NCBI GenBank assembly: GCA_965279315.1
Contig: OZ257145.1
Coordinates: 1,933,536-1,997,535 of the forward strand
Length of the DNA: 64,000 bases
Origin: Alphaproteobacteria bacterium
Lineage (GTDB): Bacteria > Pseudomonadota > Alphaproteobacteria > Micavibrionales > UBA2020
Direction: 5' to 3'
Part shown: piece after piece, positions 3,981 through 42,024 of the stretch
Position numbering within the stretch: position 1 is the stretch's first letter
How the letters are laid out: every line of letters starts with the position of its first letter
Position numbers and translations under genes: made by a program
Notes under the pieces: generated by a model
What the model was told of the DNA's origin: nothing
Database searches by the model: none
The model's input: only the letters and a program-made list of their open reading frames with translations

Positions 3981-4002
3981 TTCATAAACCTCTATCTCTT
4001 CC

Positions 4003-4028
4003 GTAACCCCGGCCTTCGCCGGGCTTAC
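4003..4028. repeat. Single REP-type hairpin (half element), probable smpB terminator
   Basis: GTAACCCCGGCCTTCGCCGGGCTTAC lies about 20 nt after the smpB stop. It has the same stem family as the long REP subfamily ends at 41906 and 44940. Confidence 0.5.
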
Positions 4029-4844
4029 ATGCTGCTCTTATCAAATCGCCTCCATTCGTGTAAATTTGTGTTCATTCGTGGGGAAAATACTACCCCAGCG
4101 CGGGAGCCCTCCATGCCCTTCATCGTCACCGATTTCGACACCAACGACATTATCGATATGGAGGGCGATGTCGATGCGCGGTTTGCGCCGTGTTCGACGT
4201 TCAAGATCCCGCTCGCCCTGATGGGCTTTGATGCCAATATCCTCCATGACGGGCAGGGGCCGCTTTGGCATTACAAGCCGGAATACGATGAGCGCGCGCC
4301 TGTCATGATCGACGCATGGCGCAAGAGTTTCGACCCCGCCGGATGGCTGAAGGAATCCGCGATCTGGTATTCGCAGGTGCTGGCGGAAAAACTGGGCGCA
4401 GAGAAATTCGCGAAATATGTGGCGGCGTTCGACTACGGCAACGGCGATATTTCCGGCGATGCGGGCAAGAACAACGGCCTGACCAACAGCTGGCTTTCCA
4501 GCAGCTTGCAAATCTCGCCGCGCGAACAGATTGGTTTCCTGCGCCGGATGCTGGCGGGCAGGTTGCCGATCTCGGAATTCGCGCTGGGCAAAACCGCGCC
4601 GCTGCTCTTTGCAGGTGAAATCGGCGGCGGGCGTTTGTTCGGCAAGACCGGCACCGGCTTCGCCGACCGCGCCGCCAAAAAACAGCGCGGCTGGTATATC
4701 GGCTGGCTGGAACGCGGCCCGCGCAAGTTCATTTACGCAGGTCTCTTTGATTACGCAGGCCCCGACTTCGCGGGAAAATACGCGCGCGGTATCATGACCG
4801 ATGTGCTGAACCGGCTCTGTAACAGCAGTGATGTGCCGGGGTAA
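4029..4844 (+). CDS. Class D (OXA-type) beta-lactamase-fold / BlaR-sensor-like protein
   Basis: Motifs in the correct order: STFK (active-site Ser-x-x-Lys), SAIWYSQ (SxV-like), FDYGNGD (YGN), WLSSSLQISPREQIGFL, and KTGTG. The start may be 4029 or Met29 at 4113. Confidence 0.75.
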   Translation: MLLLSNRLHSCKFVFIRGENTTPAREPSMPFIVTDFDTNDIIDMEGDVDARFAPCSTFKIPLALMGFDANILHDGQGPLWHYKPEYDERAPVMIDAWRKSFDPAGWLKESAIWYSQVLAEKLGAEKFAKYVAAFDYGNGDISGDAGKNNGLTNSWLSSSLQISPREQIGFLRRMLAGRLPISEFALGKTAPLLFAGEIGGGRLFGKTGTGFADRAAKKQRGWYIGWLERGPRKFIYAGLFDYAGPDFAGKYARGIMTDVLNRLCNSSDVPG

Positions 4845-4856
4845 AGATCAACATAC

Positions 4857-4936
4857 GTCATCCCCGCGAAAGCGGGGATCTCGGGGTGTGACAGGGCGCA
4901 TAAAGCCAATGGGATCCCCGCTTTCGCGGGGATGAC
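4857..4936. repeat. REP/MITE-like double-hairpin palindromic element (80 bp)
   Basis: GTCATCCCCGCGAAAGCGGGGATC, a 32-nt spacer, then GATCCCCGCTTTCGCGGGGATGAC. It lies between convergent gene ends. The spacer core TTATGCGCCCTG is shared, in inverted orientation, with the copy at 14775. Confidence 0.85.
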
Positions 4937-5423: not shown

Positions 5424-5506
5424 GCGTGAATTCTCCCTTGGGGTGAAGTGTAGCGCGCGGCTGTAATGCTGTATAGGGGCGACGCGATATTGAAGCGGGC
5501 GTGCTT

Positions 5507-5653
5507 CCCTTCTCCTTTGGGAGAAGGAGGGGCCCGTCGCTCTTTCTTGCGGCGGGAGGATGAGGGTACTCCGTCGGCGTCGGGCTTTCACGTTGACCAA
5601 GTACCCTCACCTCTGTCGCTTCGCGACATCTCCTCTCCCAAAAGGAGAGGAGA
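5507..5653. repeat. Type-2 structured repeat (two inverted half-units)
   Basis: The left half contains hairpin CTTCTCC-TTTG-GGAGAAG followed by GAGGATGAGGGTAC. The right half is GTACCCTCACCTCTGTCGCTTCGCGACA followed by hairpin TCTCCTCTCC-CAAAA-GGAGAGGAGA. The right half is nearly identical (reverse complement) to 11112..11170. Confidence 0.8.
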
Positions 5654-6896: not shown

Positions 6897-7059
6897 GTGA
6901 TTTATCCTCTTTTTCGATCGTTGATCAATCTCAAACTCGGTCTTACCCCGGTTCGATCTATAAATCCACTGTACCTATTTCGTTCTCATGGCACAAGAAC
7001 AAAATAGAACAAAAACGATACAAATTTTCTTGACAAACGATTTCAATGGGATAGGTGGG

Positions 7060-8949
7060 CTATTCCGAGAACACGAAGTTGAAACAAGGGCTTATTTCAA
7101 GCGTGTCGCCCGTTTGCACATTGCGCCATTTTCCGGGCGTTTCTTCCGTCAGGTCGCCTTGCCGGATGCCGGGTCCGAACAGGATGAAGTCTTCGAAGGG
7201 ATACGGCCATTGATAATCGATGCGCTGGCGCGTCGCGCGGGAATCCGTATCCGTGATTTTTTCGCGTTGCAGGGCGACATCGCGCTTGTCGCCGTTTCGC
7301 GTTTCGATGCCAAGCATCAGGCGGGTGCCCGCCTCGCCGCGGATCAGCGCAACGACATCGGCAAGCGCGGGCGGCAGCGGTTCGCCGTTGATGGCGACGA
7401 CGCGGTCGCCTGCCGCAATGCCCGCTTTTTCAGCAGGGGAGCCGGGCATCGTGCCAGCCGACACAACGCCGCCGCCGCCGTCCTGGGCAAGGCGCAGGCC
7501 GATGCCGCTGAAAACAGTCGCGGGAGAGGGCAGCAGCCGGAATATATGCTCGTCGCGTTTTGATCCGGGGTCGCGGCAGGTTTTGTACAGCGTCTTGCTG
7601 CCCCAGTTTTTGTTAAGGATAAGGAGCGAGGGGGTGGCGTTCGTATCAAGCCTCTCTGTGCCCTTGCCCGCAAGAATGACCTGCAAGCCGTCGCTGCCGA
7701 TTTTCAGGCTGCCGTTGCCCGTGCAAATGGTATCGACGCTGTTGCTGAAATGTAATCCGCTTTGTCGGTTCACTTCTTCCTGTGCTTCGCAATTATAGTC
7801 TTTTTTCACAACTTGCAGCGGCAAAGATGCCGGATCAAGCGGCAAGCGGCGCAGGGTGCGTTTCAGTGAATTTTCGTTGATTATCCTGACGCCTTGCCCT
7901 GTCAGGAAATCCGGCGGCAGTTTTCGGGCCTGAACCATTGTCGCGACGAGGGTGAGCGCGTCTTTTATCTGCTGGTTTTCCGTGGCGGCTGCCCAGTCGT
8001 TATATATGCGCGCGCTTTCCGCGTAATCGGGCGTGTAGGGTTGTGGCTGTTCTTCGCGCGGCAGCTTCGGCTTCGGCATATCTTTTTCGCGGGCGTCGCG
8101 GGCGGCCACCTGCGCGGCGTAATCATTGTCGCAGGTATCGGATATCCTGACATCGGCTTCGGCAGTGATCGCGACGCGGCGGGTCTTGCCGTCGGCGTCG
8201 GTTGCGGTCCAGATATACGCGCCGGGCGCGGTGTCGAATTTCTTTTTCAGGTCGTCGGATATGGGCGCGTCGTCTTTTTTCCAGGCAAGGCAGCGATCGA
8301 GAAGCACGCTGTCGAGCGCGGGATCGAGGCGTAGCTCCATGAAATCGTCTTCAAGATCGTTCAGCCCCGGCGCCATCACGCGCACGTCGTTGCGGCGGCC
8401 GTCGGCGAGGTTGAAAACCTCCACGCTGACCAGCAGAGATCCATCCAGGTATAAAAGCGGTTTCCAGCCTTTGACGGTATCGCGGCCGCCATTACCGTCG
8501 AAATGAATGCCATGCGCCGACGGTATGCTGCGCGCATTCGCGAAGGTGACAGGTTTTTGGCGGTTCAGCTGCGCGTGCAGCGCGGCCGAGGTTCTTTCCG
8601 CCGCGATGCGGTTGTCATCGACCGCGCGCTTTAGCGTGGATAATTCATTGCGCAGCTGCGCGACGGAATCGCGCAGGTCCTGCGCCTCGGCCGCCTGGGT
8701 CTGTGCCATCCCGGCCGTTTCGCGGGCCAGCGCCCGCGCGGCCTGCGCCGTATCATCGCGCGCCTGTGCGATGTCGCGCTTCAAAAGGTCGCGGTCGGCC
8801 TGCGCGCGGTTTTGGGCGATGTCGATGTTTTCAATCGTGCGCGTGTTCAGCATCACCGACACCGCAAGGCAGGCGATGACGAACCAGCACAGCGCGGACA
8901 AAACGGCGAGGGGATTTTTAAAAAACGGATGCATGTAAAAGTATAACAC
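7060..8949 (-). CDS. Membrane-anchored coiled-coil protein with a C-terminal PDZ domain
   Basis: N-terminal TM helix (LAVLSALCWFVIACLAVSVML), then a coiled-coil stretch (AQADRDLLKRDIAQARDDTAQAARALA..). A PDZ signature follows: GIGLRLAQDGGGGVVSAGTMPGSPAEKAGIAAGDRVVAINGEPL. Confidence 0.7.
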   Translation of the reverse strand: MLYFYMHPFFKNPLAVLSALCWFVIACLAVSVMLNTRTIENIDIAQNRAQADRDLLKRDIAQARDDTAQAARALARETAGMAQTQAAEAQDLRDSVAQLRNELSTLKRAVDDNRIAAERTSAALHAQLNRQKPVTFANARSIPSAHGIHFDGNGGRDTVKGWKPLLYLDGSLLVSVEVFNLADGRRNDVRVMAPGLNDLEDDFMELRLDPALDSVLLDRCLAWKKDDAPISDDLKKKFDTAPGAYIWTATDADGKTRRVAITAEADVRISDTCDNDYAAQVAARDAREKDMPKPKLPREEQPQPYTPDYAESARIYNDWAAATENQQIKDALTLVATMVQARKLPPDFLTGQGVRIINENSLKRTLRRLPLDPASLPLQVVKKDYNCEAQEEVNRQSGLHFSNSVDTICTGNGSLKIGSDGLQVILAGKGTERLDTNATPSLLILNKNWGSKTLYKTCRDPGSKRDEHIFRLLPSPATVFSGIGLRLAQDGGGGVVSAGTMPGSPAEKAGIAAGDRVVAINGEPLPPALADVVALIRGEAGTRLMLGIETRNGDKRDVALQREKITDTDSRATRQRIDYQWPYPFEDFILFGPGIRQGDLTEETPGKWRNVQTGDTLEISPCFNFVFSE

Positions 8950-9000
8950 CCAATCGTTTAGAAACCGGTAAAGCCGGCTTAAACCATGGATATCATGCTT

Positions 9001-14774: not shown

Positions 14775-14854
14775 GTCGTCCCCGCGAAAGCGGGGATCCC
14801 GGCGGCCTTATGCGCCCTGCCTATCCATGAGATCCCCGCTTTCGCGGGGATGAC
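14775..14854. repeat. REP/MITE-like double-hairpin element (80 bp)
   Basis: GTCGTCCCCGCGAAAGCGGGGATC, a 32-nt spacer, then GATCCCCGCTTTCGCGGGGATGAC. It is inverted relative to the copy at 4857. Confidence 0.85.
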
Positions 14855-21353: not shown

Positions 21354-21458
21354 GTCATCCCCACCTTGTGCGGGGATCCGGAAGCGCGTCCGCGCGTCAT
21401 GTGACTCATGAAGGCAGGCTTGCGCCTGCGCCAGACCCCCGCACAAGGCGGGGGTGAC
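21354..21458. repeat. REP/MITE-like double-hairpin element (105-bp variant)
   Basis: GTCATCCCCACCTTGTGCGGGGATC, a 55-nt spacer, then GACCCCCGCACAAGGCGGGGGTGAC. It lies between the flhB stop and the downstream gene. Confidence 0.8.
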
Positions 21459-26052: not shown

Positions 26053-26099
26053 GATCCCGGATCGGGCGTTCGCCTTGCGGCTCACTGGTCCGGGATGAC
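26053..26099. repeat. REP-type hairpin inside the fliE-fliQ intergenic region
   Basis: GATCCCGGATC..(loop)..GGTCCGGGATGAC. The arms ATCCCGGA / TCCGGGAT are complementary, and the GATGAC terminus matches the other elements. Confidence 0.55.
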
Positions 26100-29036: not shown

Positions 29037-29928
29037 GGCGTTGCATTTCCCCACTCCCCTCGTCATTCCCGCGAATGCGGGAATCCAACAGACTACGGAT
29101 CGAGCCGAGGTGGGGGTGGATTCCCGCATTCGCGGGAATGACGCAAGTCGTGTTGTACGGTTTTTGAAGAAATTTATTCCGCTCACCGCCTGCCTGCTGG
29201 TCGCCGCCATCCTCTTCATTCCCTCCCACACCTGGGCGCAGAGCATTTCGCTGAACCTTGGCGGTGCGGGCACGGATGACGGCGCTTCCGGCGGTTCGGT
29301 CGCGGGCCGCGTGGTGCAGATGGTTGTGCTGCTGACCGTGCTGTCGCTCGCGCCGTCGATCCTGATGATGATGACGTCGTTCACGCGCATTGTGGTTGTA
29401 TTGTCGTTCCTGCGCACGGCGCTCGGCACGCAGCAGACGCCGCCGAACACGGTGCTGATCTCGCTCGCGATGTTCCTGACGCTGTTCATCATGATGCCCA
29501 CGATCAACGCATCATACGAGCAGGGCCTGCGCCCGATGATGAACGACGAAGTGACGGAAATCGAGGGGCTGCAAAAGGCCGTCGTGCCGTTCAAGCAGTT
29601 CATGCTGAAACACACGCGCGAAAAGGACCTGACGCTGTTCATCGGCCTTGCGAAAATCGCCGAGCCCAAGGAGGCGATGGACACGCCGCTGCAGGTCGTC
29701 ATCCCGTCCTTCATGATTTCGGAACTGCGCCGCGCGTTTGAAATCGGGTTCCTCATCTTCCTGCCGTTCCTTGTGATCGACATGGTGACCGCGTCCATCC
29801 TGATGTCGATGGGTATGATGATGCTGCCGCCGGTCATGATCGCGCTGCCGTTCAAGATTATCTTCTTCGTGCTGGTCGATGGCTGGTACCTGATATCGGG
29901 ATCGCTGGTGCAGAGTTACGGGACCTAG
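29029..29928 (+). CDS. fliP: Flagellar export apparatus protein FliP (the 5' end contains an in-frame REP element; an alternative start is TTG at 29164)
   Basis: Signal-like KKFIPLTACLLVAAILFIPSHTWA, then MVVLLTVLSLAPSILMMMTSFTRIVVVLSFLRTALGTQQTPPN..PFLVIDMVTASILMSMGMMMLPP. Confidence 0.9.
   Translation: MVEALHFPTPLVIPANAGIQQTTDRAEVGVDSRIRGNDASRVVRFLKKFIPLTACLLVAAILFIPSHTWAQSISLNLGGAGTDDGASGGSVAGRVVQMVVLLTVLSLAPSILMMMTSFTRIVVVLSFLRTALGTQQTPPNTVLISLAMFLTLFIMMPTINASYEQGLRPMMNDEVTEIEGLQKAVVPFKQFMLKHTREKDLTLFIGLAKIAEPKEAMDTPLQVVIPSFMISELRRAFEIGFLIFLPFLVIDMVTASILMSMGMMMLPPVMIALPFKIIFFVLVDGWYLISGSLVQSYGT
29062..29142. repeat. REP/MITE-like double-hairpin element (81 bp) at the fliO/fliP junction
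   Basis: GTCATTCCCGCGAATGCGGGAATC, a 33-nt spacer, then GATTCCCGCATTCGCGGGAATGAC. Confidence 0.85.
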
Positions 29929-32408: not shown

Positions 32409-32437
32409 TTGTTTTGAGCGACCGAACAACGAAAAAA

Positions 32438-32465
32438 CCGGCGACCCTGTGGTCGCCGGTTTTTT
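32438..32465 (+). terminator. Rho-independent terminator
   Basis: CCGGCGACC-CTGT-GGTCGCCGG followed by TTTTTT. Confidence 0.85.
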
Positions 32466-32548
32466 CGTGGCCTAATCGGCTCTAAGCGCAGTCAGTTTCC
32501 TAAGCATTGGGATTTGTGACACGGCGGCCCCATGGGTATAATGCAATC

Positions 32549-34620: not shown

Positions 34621-34753
34621 GATGACCCTCGGGCGAAATGGCTTTTTTTGATTTCGAAGAATGTATCAAAACCGGCATCTTTATGCAATTTGATTTTCAT
34701 AATTGAATTACGCTAAAAATATCCTTTAATAACAATGGATTATTTTAAATAAA

Positions 34754-34782
34754 TTGACGTTTTATTCCATAATCAATATAAC
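34754..34782 (+). promoter_or_regulatory. sigma70-type promoter for the ankyrin gene
   Basis: TTGACG, a 17-nt spacer, then TATAAC, inside an AT-rich divergent intergenic region. A small hairpin CCCGCA-GAGG-TGCGGG lies between it and the RBS. Confidence 0.5.
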
Positions 34783-34815
34783 GACACATCCCCGCAGAGG
34801 TGCGGGACAGCAGGA

Positions 34816-36369
34816 GTGAAAAAATTGCCCGATGAAAAAAACGTCGAATTCTCATCATTGACCAAAGAGCGCAGCGAAAAACTTTTCGTGTCGCAGAAGC
34901 TCAAACTTTTCATCCTGACCGGCCAGCCCGATGCCGACGGCACACATTCCAGCCTTGCCATCAAGCCTTTCCATCAGTTGAGCAAAGACGAACGCGCTGC
35001 GCTGACTGCGAAGGCGGAGCCGCACGGGCCCGCTTCAAAAATTTCCATCATCAAACAGGGTGACGGCCTTTCCTTCACCGACGAGATGACGGGCAAGACG
35101 ACCGTCACGCCGCTGCGCCACCTTGACACCGATGTGCGCGAAAAACTCTCCGACCCGTTCAAGCGCCTCTCGTCTTATGACGCGGCGAAAATCGCCCTGC
35201 GCCGCAAATTCGCGGCGGGGGTGCTGGGCGTTGCGGGGCTGGGCGGCGGGTTGGGTGCGGCATACAACGCGGGCGTTTTCGAACCGCTGTCCGATATGAC
35301 GACGCGCGTGTTTGCGCCGGAAGCCAAGCCCGCGGACGCGCCGACAGTCGCGCCCCTCGTCGAATTGACGGGCGCGCGTGAAAAAAATGCGCTGAAATTC
35401 GATGAAAATCCCGCGATGGTTGAATATCTCGGCCAGCAGATGGATTCTTTCCCGCAGCGCGAGAAGCAATTCCTTTACACCGTCATGGTGGGGGAGGCGC
35501 AGAAGGCGGCCGACCTGCTGGTCAGCAAAGACGGCGCGGAAATCCTCAAGCAGGCCGGCAGCCTTGCCATGATTATCGCGACACGGAACGGCGACCTCGA
35601 CATGATCCGCGTGTTGCATGGTGCGGGGCAATCGACGAACCAGACCTATCACCCCACGACCTATGCGGCCGAAGATGTATGGGTGCCGCTGGTCGATGCG
35701 ATCGAGCGCGGCTTGCCGAAAACGACGGAGCTGCTGCTGAAGCTCGGCGCAGATCCGGAACAGCGCGACAACCCGCGCCGCCCGACACCCTATATGCTGG
35801 CCGCCTATTCACCGCTGATCGATACGGATGTTGCGGTCGAAGTGATGGACAAGCTCCAGAAAGGCGGCGCGAAACTGGAGGCGCTCAGCCCCTATGGTGC
35901 CGACGCGCTGATGCACACGATTACGGCTTCGGACGGCGATGCACGCAAATTTGAAAAGGCCTTGTCCGTTCTGCCCGATGCGAAGGCCGCGGTGAACAAG
36001 CCCTATCGCGTTTACAGGACCGCCGTGGGCTGGGTCGGCGGCTGGACGCTGCTGATGGAGGAAATCGAACGCCAGAGCTATCGCGGCAATGCCGATAATG
36101 CGATCGTGAAATCCATGTTCGCGCATGGCGCGAATGTGAACGCGAAAAACGAAGCAGGCTGGACCGCGCTGCATATGGCGGCGGAACTCGACCAGCTGGA
36201 CACGGTCAGGATGCTGGTCAAGGCCGGCGCAAATATCCACGCCCGCGATAACAACGGCCAGACCGCGCTTGATGTCGCGAAGAAATCCGATCTCGAACCC
36301 GTGCGCGTCCGCAATTACCTGCAGGGGCTGATGCAGGTGAAGCCGAAGGTGCTCGCGCCTGCGGGCTGA
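34816..36369 (+). CDS. Ankyrin-repeat protein (517 aa)
   Basis: Canonical ANK units near the C-terminus: GWTALHMAAELDQLDTVRMLVKAGANIHARDNNGQTALDVA. Further units include ATRNGDLDMIRVLHGAG and AIERGLPKTTELLLKLGADP. The start may be GTG 34816 or TTG 34825 (AGGAG 8 nt upstream of the latter). Confidence 0.8.
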   Translation: MKKLPDEKNVEFSSLTKERSEKLFVSQKLKLFILTGQPDADGTHSSLAIKPFHQLSKDERAALTAKAEPHGPASKISIIKQGDGLSFTDEMTGKTTVTPLRHLDTDVREKLSDPFKRLSSYDAAKIALRRKFAAGVLGVAGLGGGLGAAYNAGVFEPLSDMTTRVFAPEAKPADAPTVAPLVELTGAREKNALKFDENPAMVEYLGQQMDSFPQREKQFLYTVMVGEAQKAADLLVSKDGAEILKQAGSLAMIIATRNGDLDMIRVLHGAGQSTNQTYHPTTYAAEDVWVPLVDAIERGLPKTTELLLKLGADPEQRDNPRRPTPYMLAAYSPLIDTDVAVEVMDKLQKGGAKLEALSPYGADALMHTITASDGDARKFEKALSVLPDAKAAVNKPYRVYRTAVGWVGGWTLLMEEIERQSYRGNADNAIVKSMFAHGANVNAKNEAGWTALHMAAELDQLDTVRMLVKAGANIHARDNNGQTALDVAKKSDLEPVRVRNYLQGLMQVKPKVLAPAG

Positions 36370-36374
36370 GCAGA

Positions 36375-36872
36375 TTACAATTTCCAGTCCGGCCTGACCC
36401 AATGGCAGGTATAGCCGTTCGGGTTTTTTTGCAGGTAGTCCTGATGGTAATCCTCGCCGTCCCAGAATTTGGTGAAGGGTTCCAGCGTGGTGGCGACCTT
36501 GCCTGGCCATTTGCCGCTGTTGTTGACGGCGATGATCACATCCATCGCGGTTTTTTTCTGCTCGTCATCCATGTAGAAAATCGCCGAGCGGTATTGCGTG
36601 CCGCGGTCGTTGCCCTGGCGGTCTTTCGTCGTCGGGTCGTGGATCTTGAAAAAATATTCCAGCAGCGCGCGATAGGTTGTTTTCGCGGAATCGAAGGTCA
36701 GCTCGATCGCTTCCGCATGGCCGCTCTTGCTGTCATGCGTGTCGTCATATTTCGGGTTGTCCAGATGCCCGCCGGTATAGCCGACGCGCGATGAAATAAC
36801 GCCCGGTTGCGTGCGCAGCAGTTCCTGCATCCCCCAGAAACACCCGCCCGCGATGACCATTTTGTTGCTCAT
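36375..36872 (-). CDS. msrA: Peptide-methionine (S)-S-oxide reductase
   Basis: Active-site motif GGCFWG, plus [16 protein letters not shown] and [18 protein letters not shown]. Confidence 0.95.
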
Positions 36873-40607: not shown

Positions 40608-40615
40608 CTTGAATT

Positions 40616-40984
40616 GTCATTCCGGCGAACGCCGGAATCCACGGACTTCACCGGTTCCCCATGAGCAGCCAGTATTTTGTTTATATCCTTGCCAGCAAAA
40701 AGCACGGTACGCTTTATATCGGCGTCACAAGCAATCTGGTGAAAAGAGTGCATGAACACAAGAACAGGCTTGCGGAAGGTTTCACGAAGAAATACAACGT
40801 TTCTCAGTTAGTGCATTTTGAATGCTGTGATGATGTAAACGCTGCCATACAACGCGAAAAGCAGCTGAAAGAATGGCGGCGCGACTGGAAAATTGATCTG
40901 ATCGAGAAAGAAAATCCGGACTGGGCTGATTTGTACGCAACGATAACGGCGTAGTCCGTGGACCCCGGCTTTCGCCGGGGTGAC
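40616..40984. mobile_element. REP-type element carrying a GIY-YIG nuclease ORF (candidate autonomous copy of the hairpin-repeat family)
   Basis: The 31-nt ends are GTCATTCCGGCGAACGCCGGAATCCACGGAC (left) and GTCCGTGGACCCCGGCTTTCGCCGGGGTGAC (right). They are inverted repeats matching at 26/31 positions, and the differences are compensatory. Confidence 0.55.
40661..40954 (+). CDS. GIY-YIG nuclease family protein (UPF0213/YhbQ-like, 97 aa)
   Basis: YFVYILASKKHGTLYIGVTSNLVKRVHEHK..YNVSQLVHFE..AIQREKQLKEWRRDWK. The GIY and YIG elements and the conserved Arg/Glu are present. Confidence 0.9.
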   Translation: MSSQYFVYILASKKHGTLYIGVTSNLVKRVHEHKNRLAEGFTKKYNVSQLVHFECCDDVNAAIQREKQLKEWRRDWKIDLIEKENPDWADLYATITA

Positions 40985-40993
40985 AGGAATGTG

Positions 40994-41905: not shown

Positions 41906-42024
41906 GTAACCACGGCGAAGGCCGGGGTCCAAGCAGCCGCTCTTATTATTGGCGGCTGCGGCTTATGAGGTGTCACCGCCAATATTCTGGGGAGTGCTTA
42001 GACCCCGGCTTTCGCCGGGGTTAC
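41906..42024. repeat. Long-subfamily REP element (119 bp)
   Basis: GTAACCACGGCGAAGGCCGGGGTC, then an interior CAAGCAGCCGCTCTTATTATTGGCGGCTGCGGCTTATGAGGTGTCACCGCCAAT.., then GACCCCGGCTTTCGCCGGGGTTAC. The interior is collinear with the copy at 44940. Confidence 0.85.

Follow-up and report, generated by a model that had tools for sequence, protein, structure and literature searches.

The Hairpin-Bracketed ssn Gene

We analyzed 64,000 nt of contig OZ257145.1 from an uncultured alphaproteobacterium (hereafter the window), in which a small GIY-YIG nuclease gene lies between two inverted hairpins at positions 40616–40984. This locus very probably belongs to the Ssn/SRM system (Ssn nucleases and Ssn-related motifs, SRMs; Chenal et al. 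2025, Nat Commun 16:2388, PMC11893778), that is, a GIY-YIG endonuclease gene, ssn, bracketed by outward-facing copies of the hairpin that its product recognizes. The unit comprises the following features, where NTS denotes the SRM form of Neisseria:

40616–40646, plus strand: left SRM/NTS-type hairpin; GTC head outward, 8-bp stem ATTCCGGC/GCCGGAAT, loop GAAC, then C-CACGGAC
40661–40954, plus strand: ssn, 97-aa single-domain GIY-YIG nuclease of the Ssn family (Pfam PF01541, homology, AlphaFold2, dN/dS)
40954–40984, minus strand: right SRM/NTS-type hairpin; minus-strand reading GTCACCCCGGCGAAAGCCGGGGTCCACGGAC, head outward, SRM pattern match

The left end of the unit reads GTCATTCCGGCGAACGCCGGAATCCACGGAC; the reverse complement of the right end agrees with it at 26 of 31 positions, and four of the five mismatches are paired substitutions (TT/AA versus CC/GG), so that a perfect 8-bp stem remains intact at each end. 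Folded as DNA, the two hairpins reach −9 and −12.2 kcal/mol (z = −2.7 and −3.8), better than their shuffles. A 14-nt spacer (40647–40660) separates the left end from the ATG of ssn, and the TAG stop codon (40952–40954) shares its G with the right repeat. These end sequences, their paired differences, the spacer, the 97-aa open reading frame (ORF), and the shared nucleotide had all been read in the original prediction, and they hold on re-reading. An inverted-repeat finder ranked this pair first among the inverted repeats of the window. Moreover, the published SRM pattern, HGTCWYN(0-2)YYVSBRHN(0-5)WNVSBRGN(0-2)RNCYNB, matched both flanks of the gene, at 40615–40642 (plus strand) and 40958–40985 (minus strand), over a background that averages 0.34 matches per Markov-chain random window. 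The window holds one copy of ssn. Scanning of the unit for promoters and terminators uncovered nothing convincing; because it has neither of its own, ssn is probably co-transcribed with the host operon.

The encoded protein matched the Pfam GIY-YIG domain (PF01541) over residues 4–78 (E = 6e-16), with no second domain and the related T5orf172 as its sole other Pfam match, which marks it as a GIY-YIG protein and not as a Y1 HUH transposase. It shares 54% identity with the 94-aa SsnA ortholog of N. gonorrhoeae (MQPAVYIL...; tblastn, E = 5e-26) and 59% with a Neisseria sp. homolog (BLASTP, E = 1e-43), and thus falls below the E < 1e-10 by which SsnA homologs were defined in PMC11893778. Residues Y8, Y19, and E66 align with gonococcal Y6, Y17, and E64 and are invariant across 20 diverse homologs; in N. 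meningitidis SsnA, Y6, Y17, and E64 are the residues that were mutated and found to be needed for cleavage (PMC11893778). AlphaFold2 modeled the window protein as one compact GIY-YIG fold (pLDDT 88.9). Among solved folds, Foldseek placed nearest to it UPF0213 protein BH0048 (PDB 1zg2; E = 1e-3, TM 0.57, 23% identity), followed by the Slx1 nuclease domain (E = 1e-2, TM 0.55) and the UvrC N-terminal domain, with identities of 23–29% to the BH0048 and Slx1 folds, while phmmer yielded no match among PDB sequences at E ≤ 0.01. The protein had originally been called "UPF0213-type", a label that is imprecise, as the published family is cd10448 (Ssn) and BH0048 is merely the nearest solved fold. We know of no repeat association of UPF0213 (BH0048) or Slx1 proteins.

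NCBIfam and PADLOC searches returned sub-threshold generic GIY-YIG matches alone, with no named family and no defense-system assignment. An exact-sequence look-up found the window protein not on record. Its close relatives number in the thousands (E ≤ 0.001 for 7,999 of 8,000 candidates scored). A collection of 50,697 phage records contained no homolog, and plasmid matches were mostly to large replicons. Identity stays at ~65–75% even in Nitrospirae, Patescibacteria (the candidate phyla radiation, CPR), Omnitrophota, and Campylobacterota, a similarity across phyla that suggests horizontal transfer of ssn.

Association of Gene and Hairpins across Phyla

In the work of Chenal et al. (PMC11893778), SsnA is a 94-aa protein of cd10448 (GIY-YIG_unchar_3) that binds the hairpin only as single-stranded DNA (ssDNA), in a single orientation, and cleaves the strand upstream of it at a distance of a few nt, ssDNA-specific cleavage having been demonstrated for four homologs. 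The fragment sizes in those assays imply a cut ~3 nt 5' of the head. In N. meningitidis, SsnA lowers transformation by NTS-bearing DNA. The 28-nt Neisseria NTS, CGTCATTCCCGCGMAVGCGGGAATCYRG, encloses the old dRS3 repeat, and the SRM is the broader motif. At least one SRM lies near 71% of ssnA homologs and SRMs lie on both sides of 42%; 81% of the genomes with >200 SRMs carry ssn, and across RefSeq the repeat-associated gene is ssn, not a transposase. The Discussion of that paper likens NTS-ssnA-NTS to an insertion sequence, draws the analogy with IS200/IS605 and with the repetitive extragenic palindromes (REPs) and their mosaic BIME arrangements, and suggests domestication. We found no literature after Chenal et al. 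on Ssn mobility or structure. The original prediction knew of no established model that links GIY-YIG enzymes to REPs; this is superseded by the 2025 publication.

We surveyed 80 homologous loci from GTDB species representatives of many phyla, with 265 shifted positions in the same loci as controls. A permissive hairpin detector was positive at 37% of the control positions; counts were therefore made with a stricter definition (GTC or GTA head, 8-bp stem with ≤1 mismatch, loop of 3–45 nt, then C). Most loci carry a GTCATTCCCGCGAAAGCGGGAATCCA-like hairpin just 5' of the ATG and its reverse complement just 3' of the stop codon. The nearest hairpins faced head-out on both sides of the gene at 49 of the 80 loci and at none of the 265 controls, were two-sided in other orientations at 15 loci and one control, occurred on one side only at 11 loci and 21 controls, and were missing from five loci and 243 controls. 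In other words, 75/80 loci but 22/265 shifted controls have at least one hairpin nearby. Among the phyla with hairpins beside the gene are CPR, Planctomycetota, Cyanobacteria, Bacteroidota, and Pseudomonadota. The predicted association of gene and hairpin is thus real and general. Of the REP-like reading originally proposed, modeled on REPs and their associated tyrosine transposases (RAYTs), the generality of the association stands, and the gene-less pairs do behave as non-autonomous units; the analogy itself, however, was already in print (PMC11893778). The window locus is a further member of the Ssn/SRM system and, the association having been published, a rediscovery.

The window resembles the published system in its ~95-aa single-domain GIY-YIG protein, with the Tyr, Tyr, and Glu residues of the gonococcal ortholog kept, in a hairpin of the form GTCATTCC-N-GCGAA-N-GC-N-GGAATCC, close to the NTS consensus, and in a gene that is hairpin-flanked on both sides while further copies are scattered in intergenic DNA. 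It differs in its host, an uncultured alphaproteobacterium, and in its stem, where C:G has become G:C with compensation and, in the right hairpin, TT/AA has become CC/GG. Furthermore, its flanks are strictly head-out, whereas the nearest NTS copies in N. gonorrhoeae face inward (L166:280-800, NZ_CP119140.1), contrary to the head-out order that the window has in common with most other phyla. This 2.17-Mb replicon, a "plasmid" in PLSDB, is evidently the gonococcal chromosome. A similar kinship links the window to the neisserial dRS3/NIME repeats: the dRS3 core ATTCCC-N8-GGGAAT is the NTS stem-loop, and the window element at 29062–29142 has exactly ATTCCCGCGAATGCGGGAAT. However, the original description of dRS3 was of a 20-bp repeat that serves as a phage integration target, with no nuclease attached to it, and the longer oriented motif and the nuclease were not recognized until 2025.

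Gene-Less Pairs and the History of the ssn Locus

By the strict definition, the window contains 14 hairpins in seven pairs, namely the ssn unit and six ORF-less pairs, plus one solo hairpin, so that 12 hairpins in six pairs and the solo accompany the ssn pair in 64 kb. A 24-nt pattern with ≤3 mismatches found 12 sites in the window and none in 100 dinucleotide-preserving shuffles. These further elements, with no strand assigned to the pairs, are:

4857–4936: ORF-less head-out SRM pair, 80 bp, located where two genes converge
14775–14854: ORF-less head-out SRM pair, 80 bp, of the subfamily of 4857–4936 in opposite orientation
21354–21458: ORF-less head-out SRM pair, 105 bp; each end has the variant loop CCTTGTG
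29062–29142: ORF-less head-out SRM pair, 81 bp, 27-nt perfectly complementary arms
41906–42024: ORF-less head-out pair, 119 bp, GTAA heads
44940–45058: ORF-less head-out pair, 119 bp, second GTAA-head copy
4005–4028, minus strand: solo SRM-like hairpin in the intergenic spacer between smpB and a class D beta-lactamase gene

The original prediction had listed the first four with the same termini as the ssn unit, which is borne out; the two 119-bp pairs were absent from that list. All seven pairs of the window are head-out, with the GTCA head (GTAA in two pairs) outside at both ends, and all elements are intergenic, at distances of 2–12 nt from the adjoining gene ends; four lie where the neighboring genes converge. 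Within each pair, the loop/stem variant is identical at the two ends, as expected if a pair is copied as a unit. The internal 32 nt of the 14775 element agree with the reverse-complemented 4857 element at 22 positions, the internal 71 nt of the 44940 element are identical to those of the 41906 element at 58 of 71, and a single nt of 24 sets the right arm of 41906–42024 apart from the right-hand ssn hairpin. The bases adjoining the seven elements mostly lengthen the inverted repeat by 1 nt. At gathering thresholds, Rfam recognized no family in the window. A structural scan alone pointed to a possible extra solo SRM-like hairpin with a long loop at 26053–26099 on the minus strand (GTCATCCCGGA...TCCGGGATC).

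For presence or absence of the elements, we compared the window with related contigs, L081–L084 over window 34–47 kb (87–90% nucleotide identity) and L167 and L169 over 0–10 kb (84–96%). The MAFFT alignment was wrong at filled versus empty sites, and the junctions were read directly instead. The pair at 41906–42024 is absent from L082 and L084, in which two convergent genes abut; an unrelated 50-nt hairpin replaces the pair at 44940–45058 in L082; and the pair at 4857–4936 is missing from L167 and from L169, where a 10-nt spacer stands. All three testable pairs are therefore polymorphic, and the ssn unit is fixed. ORF-less pairs turn over quickly between related genomes. The smpB/beta-lactamase spacer, with a solo GTAAC hairpin in the window (3983–4111), accommodates a different SRM pair with different stems in each of the two relatives (ATCCTGAGCG stems at L167:4897-4975; ATCCCAGC and ATGCCAGC stems at L169:4700-4800), and has the appearance of an insertion or replacement hot spot.

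The ssn unit itself has a different history. Five related contigs (L081–L085) encode the closest ssn proteins (89% and 81% identity) at this very position, flanked by the gene for a ~917-aa methyltransferase-like protein and that for a 300-aa methyltransferase. Neither hairpin stem varies among these contigs, and the right hairpin shows 100% identity over the bases that each of them covers, three of the contigs ending at 40983–40985. By comparison, ssn coding sequence differs at ~13–15% of positions among the aligned contigs, with synonymous divergence (dS) of 0.59–0.74, against 0.48 for the downstream gene, and a nonsynonymous-to-synonymous ratio (dN/dS) of 0.07–0.15. Synteny, invariant stems, a dS like that of the neighbor, and the low dN/dS indicate that the unit is vertically inherited under purifying selection and has been fixed since the window and L081–L085 lineages split. 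The composition of ssn (GC 45%; GC at third codon positions, GC3, 54%) is foreign to that of its neighbors (GC 60–63%, GC3 76–80%).

We also examined 80 metagenomic loci with homologs of the downstream methyltransferase, and ssn was near none of them; it thus travels with its hairpins, not with these neighbors. L087 (65% identity), the only one of the 80 that keeps the upstream gene, has no element, and its junction reads TAATG, the two methyltransferase-like genes overlapping by 1 nt (stop/start). This empty site, from one fairly distant relative, is consistent with a single old insertion of the ssn unit into an operon junction. Three independent short-read assemblies, L081 (end 6325), L083 (4129), and L085 (2763), break off within 1–2 nt of the point where the right SRM terminates on its outer side. 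A hairpin repeated in high copy would be expected to interrupt assembly in this way, and ssn loci in metagenomes may be broken up systematically.

Elsewhere, three metagenome-assembled genomes (MAGs) carry two ssn units each, at unrelated loci and with sharply bounded homology. The units have 517 bp in common at 98.6% in L024/L026 (L024:2868-3384, L026:2868-3384), 515 bp at 91% in L031/L044 (L031:2902-3416, L044:2902-3389), and 365 bp at 81% in L029/L041, whose left boundary is the outer end of the hairpin. In L024/L026 and L031/L044, from two deltaproteobacterial MAGs, the duplicated unit runs ~60–100 bp past the SRMs to outer, perfect terminal inverted repeats (TIRs), GCATTACCAGTTTGTTAAAG...CTTTAACAAACTGGTAATGC and CATAAGCGCTAACTTAA...TTAAGTTAGCGCTTATG. 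SRM-ssn-SRM may there be nested in, inserted into, or co-mobilized with a second palindromic element. Similar motifs, AAGCGCTAAC, flank ssn in L020 and L047.

Several other features of the window were noted. A ~200-nt segment at 5455–5652, missing in L167 and L169, carries other hairpins (CTTCTCCTTTGGGAGAAGGAG, CTCCTCTCCCAAAAGGAGAGGAG) and probably represents another small repeat element of an unrelated kind. Between recA and deoC homologs, a minus-strand gene for a 629-aa protein (7060–8949; region 7055–9000) is missing in L169, leaving a gap of ~17 nt, and is a lineage-specific insertion or loss. Window 34704–36378 is not collinear with L081, which has ~1.08 kb there, including a Sel1-repeat gene, versus 1.67 kb here. 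A perfect 18-bp palindrome at 32429–32468, flanked by A and T runs (ACGAAAAAACCGGCGACC / GGTCGCCGGTTTTTTCGT), resembles an intrinsic terminator for both directions and has no relation to the SRM family. The class D (OXA-type) beta-lactamase homolog next to the spacer described above (4112–4844) has 84–91% identical metagenomic proteins as its nearest relatives.

Possible Domestication or Mobility of the Unit

By analogy with its homologs, Ssn would bind the folded hairpin on ssDNA and hydrolyze the strand 5' of the GTCA head, at a distance of a few nt. Since the heads point outward, the predicted cut sites would lie just outside each end of a unit, one per strand, and any one single strand of an element would therefore have one cleavable end. 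Nicking of hairpins on ssDNA, whether exposed at replication forks or entering the cell by transformation or conjugation, would limit recombination of SRM-bearing DNA and may also start break-repair or copying events that create or delete hairpin-bounded units. To our knowledge, GIY-YIG enzymes hydrolyze DNA and have no strand-transfer or covalent step. As they lack covalent rejoining chemistry, any propagation would have to use host repair or replication, as homing-like gene conversion between hairpin-bounded sites or as nick-primed copying. Within these bounds, mobility of the units driven by Ssn is plausible.

Several points nevertheless weigh against the reading of the locus as an Ssn/SRM system. 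Its binding and cleavage of ssDNA hairpins are predicted from homologs, and the gonococcal ortholog stood in for the characterized SsnA of N. meningitidis in our comparisons. The role in Neisseria, modulating transformation, may not be applicable to an uncultured alphaproteobacterium. Both polymorphic pairs beside ssn have GTAA instead of GTCA heads, and GTAA-head pairs may be poor Ssn substrates because cleavage depends most on the three nt that precede the palindrome (PMC11893778). Finally, inspection of the flanks for direct repeats disclosed no target-site duplications (TSDs) at any of the seven elements, and no clean flanks common to filled and empty sites were found, which leaves the insertion chemistry unreadable.

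A rival account that we regard as possible is that, along the lines proposed for Neisseria, Ssn is a domesticated host nuclease that restricts incoming or exposed ssDNA at SRM control sites and so tunes recombination, the turnover of repeats being a by-product of recombination between them and not of transposition by Ssn. The transformation phenotypes in N. meningitidis (PMC11893778) point in this direction, and so do the long vertical retention of ssn, with its purifying selection and invariant stems, the confinement of every element to intergenic DNA within 2–12 nt of gene ends, and the probable co-transcription of a gene devoid of its own promoter and terminator with the host operon. On the other hand, domestication leaves head-out bracketing across phyla and the apparent horizontal transfer unexplained. 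It is, moreover, compatible with mobility.

We entertain more tentatively that the unit is a currently active, autonomous selfish element, in which Ssn nicks at the hairpin ends and repair or copying spreads the unit and, in trans, the pairs. This would account for the TIR-like head-out architecture of 7/7 window elements and 49/80 homologous loci, the discrete units duplicated within single MAGs, the ~65–70% protein identity between distant phyla that suggests horizontal transfer, the low GC3 of ssn relative to its host, the empty site in L087, and the polymorphism of the pairs, including one spacer with three different SRM elements in three genomes. Yet the ssn unit has stayed unmoved since the window, L081, and L082 split (dS ~0.6) and is single-copy in the window; its enzyme is of a hydrolytic class, and cutting in a single orientation leaves one cleavable end per strand. 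Neither TSDs nor clean footprints were found, the phage records hold no homolog, the plasmid matches are mostly to large replicons, and the duplicated units of L024/L026 and L031/L044 end at outer inverted repeats, not at SRMs. The designation "autonomous element" in the original prediction is accordingly not borne out, either here or in PMC11893778, given a fixed resident, a hydrolytic enzyme, and no TSDs. A stronger formulation, rather unlikely in our judgment, would make hairpin-ssn-hairpin the autonomous member of a novel class of prokaryotic mobile elements, with a hydrolytic GIY-YIG ssDNA nickase as its sole protein, spreading without TSDs by nick-initiated copying or repair at hairpins extruded on ssDNA, and the gene-less pairs its non-autonomous derivatives. 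The polymorphic pairs, the spacer with three occupants, the duplicated units elsewhere, and the similarity across phyla are consistent with it.

It is improbable that the pairs are moved by another enzyme with its gene elsewhere in the genome, for example a Y1 transposase of the IS200/IS605 or RAYT type, and that Ssn merely recognizes the same hairpins. REP doublets of equal geometry (REPINs) are indeed moved by RAYTs, the polymorphic GTAA-head pairs are unlike the heads that flank ssn, and the duplicated units of L024/L026 and L031/L044 have outer TIRs as their limits. Against this, it is ssn and not a transposase that is tied to the repeats across RefSeq and is carried by 81% of the genomes with >200 SRMs (PMC11893778). 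The likeness to REP/RAYT, REPIN, and IS200/IS605 TnpA systems lies in a small enzyme gene between recognized palindromes and in gene-less inverted doublets in intergenic DNA; REP/RAYT and IS200/IS605 also have in common with ssn the recognition of ssDNA hairpins, for Ssn by its homologs, and the lack of TSDs. The enzymes are nonetheless different: HUH/Y1 proteins form a covalent 5'-phosphotyrosine and rejoin DNA, whereas the GIY-YIG fold is unrelated and hydrolytic. Likewise, the ends of IS200/IS605 are not inverted and are cut on the same strand, while the ssn ends would be cleavable on opposite strands.

Chance juxtaposition by insertion of an unrelated gene into a pre-existing REP pair, the alternative raised in the original prediction and suggested by gene-less pairs with equal ends in the window, can be dismissed as extremely improbable, since bracketing recurs in most of the 80 loci from unrelated phyla and at 0/265 shifted controls, the hairpins that flank ssn are conserved more strictly than its synonymous sites, and ssn is near 0/80 of the downstream-methyltransferase loci.

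Two further classes were rejected. GIY-YIG homing endonucleases (I-TevI, Seg) have the same catalytic core, and break-promoted copying is one conceivable model for ssn, but they are ~250-aa cutters of double-stranded DNA with a separate DNA-binding domain, found in introns and phage genomes. The window protein has 97 aa, no extra domain, a score of 21 bits for NCBIfam TIGR01453 versus a cut-off of 56, no phage match, and a chromosomal intergenic site. A classical miniature inverted-repeat transposable element of the DDE type, with TIRs and TSDs, was discarded on the absence of direct repeats around all seven elements.

The rediscovery of the Ssn/SRM association from raw sequence alone confirms that its signal is visible and general. 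The mobility of SRM-ssn-SRM and the way in which the repeats multiply are questions that this clade could address, as it constitutes a natural system in which a fixed, selected nuclease gene with invariant hairpins stands beside pairs of fast turnover among genomes of 84–96% identity in neighboring DNA, and in which a single intergenic spacer has three different occupants in three genomes. Its natural hairpin variants, which have compensated stems and either GTAA or GTCA heads, could serve as probes of Ssn specificity for ssDNA tools.

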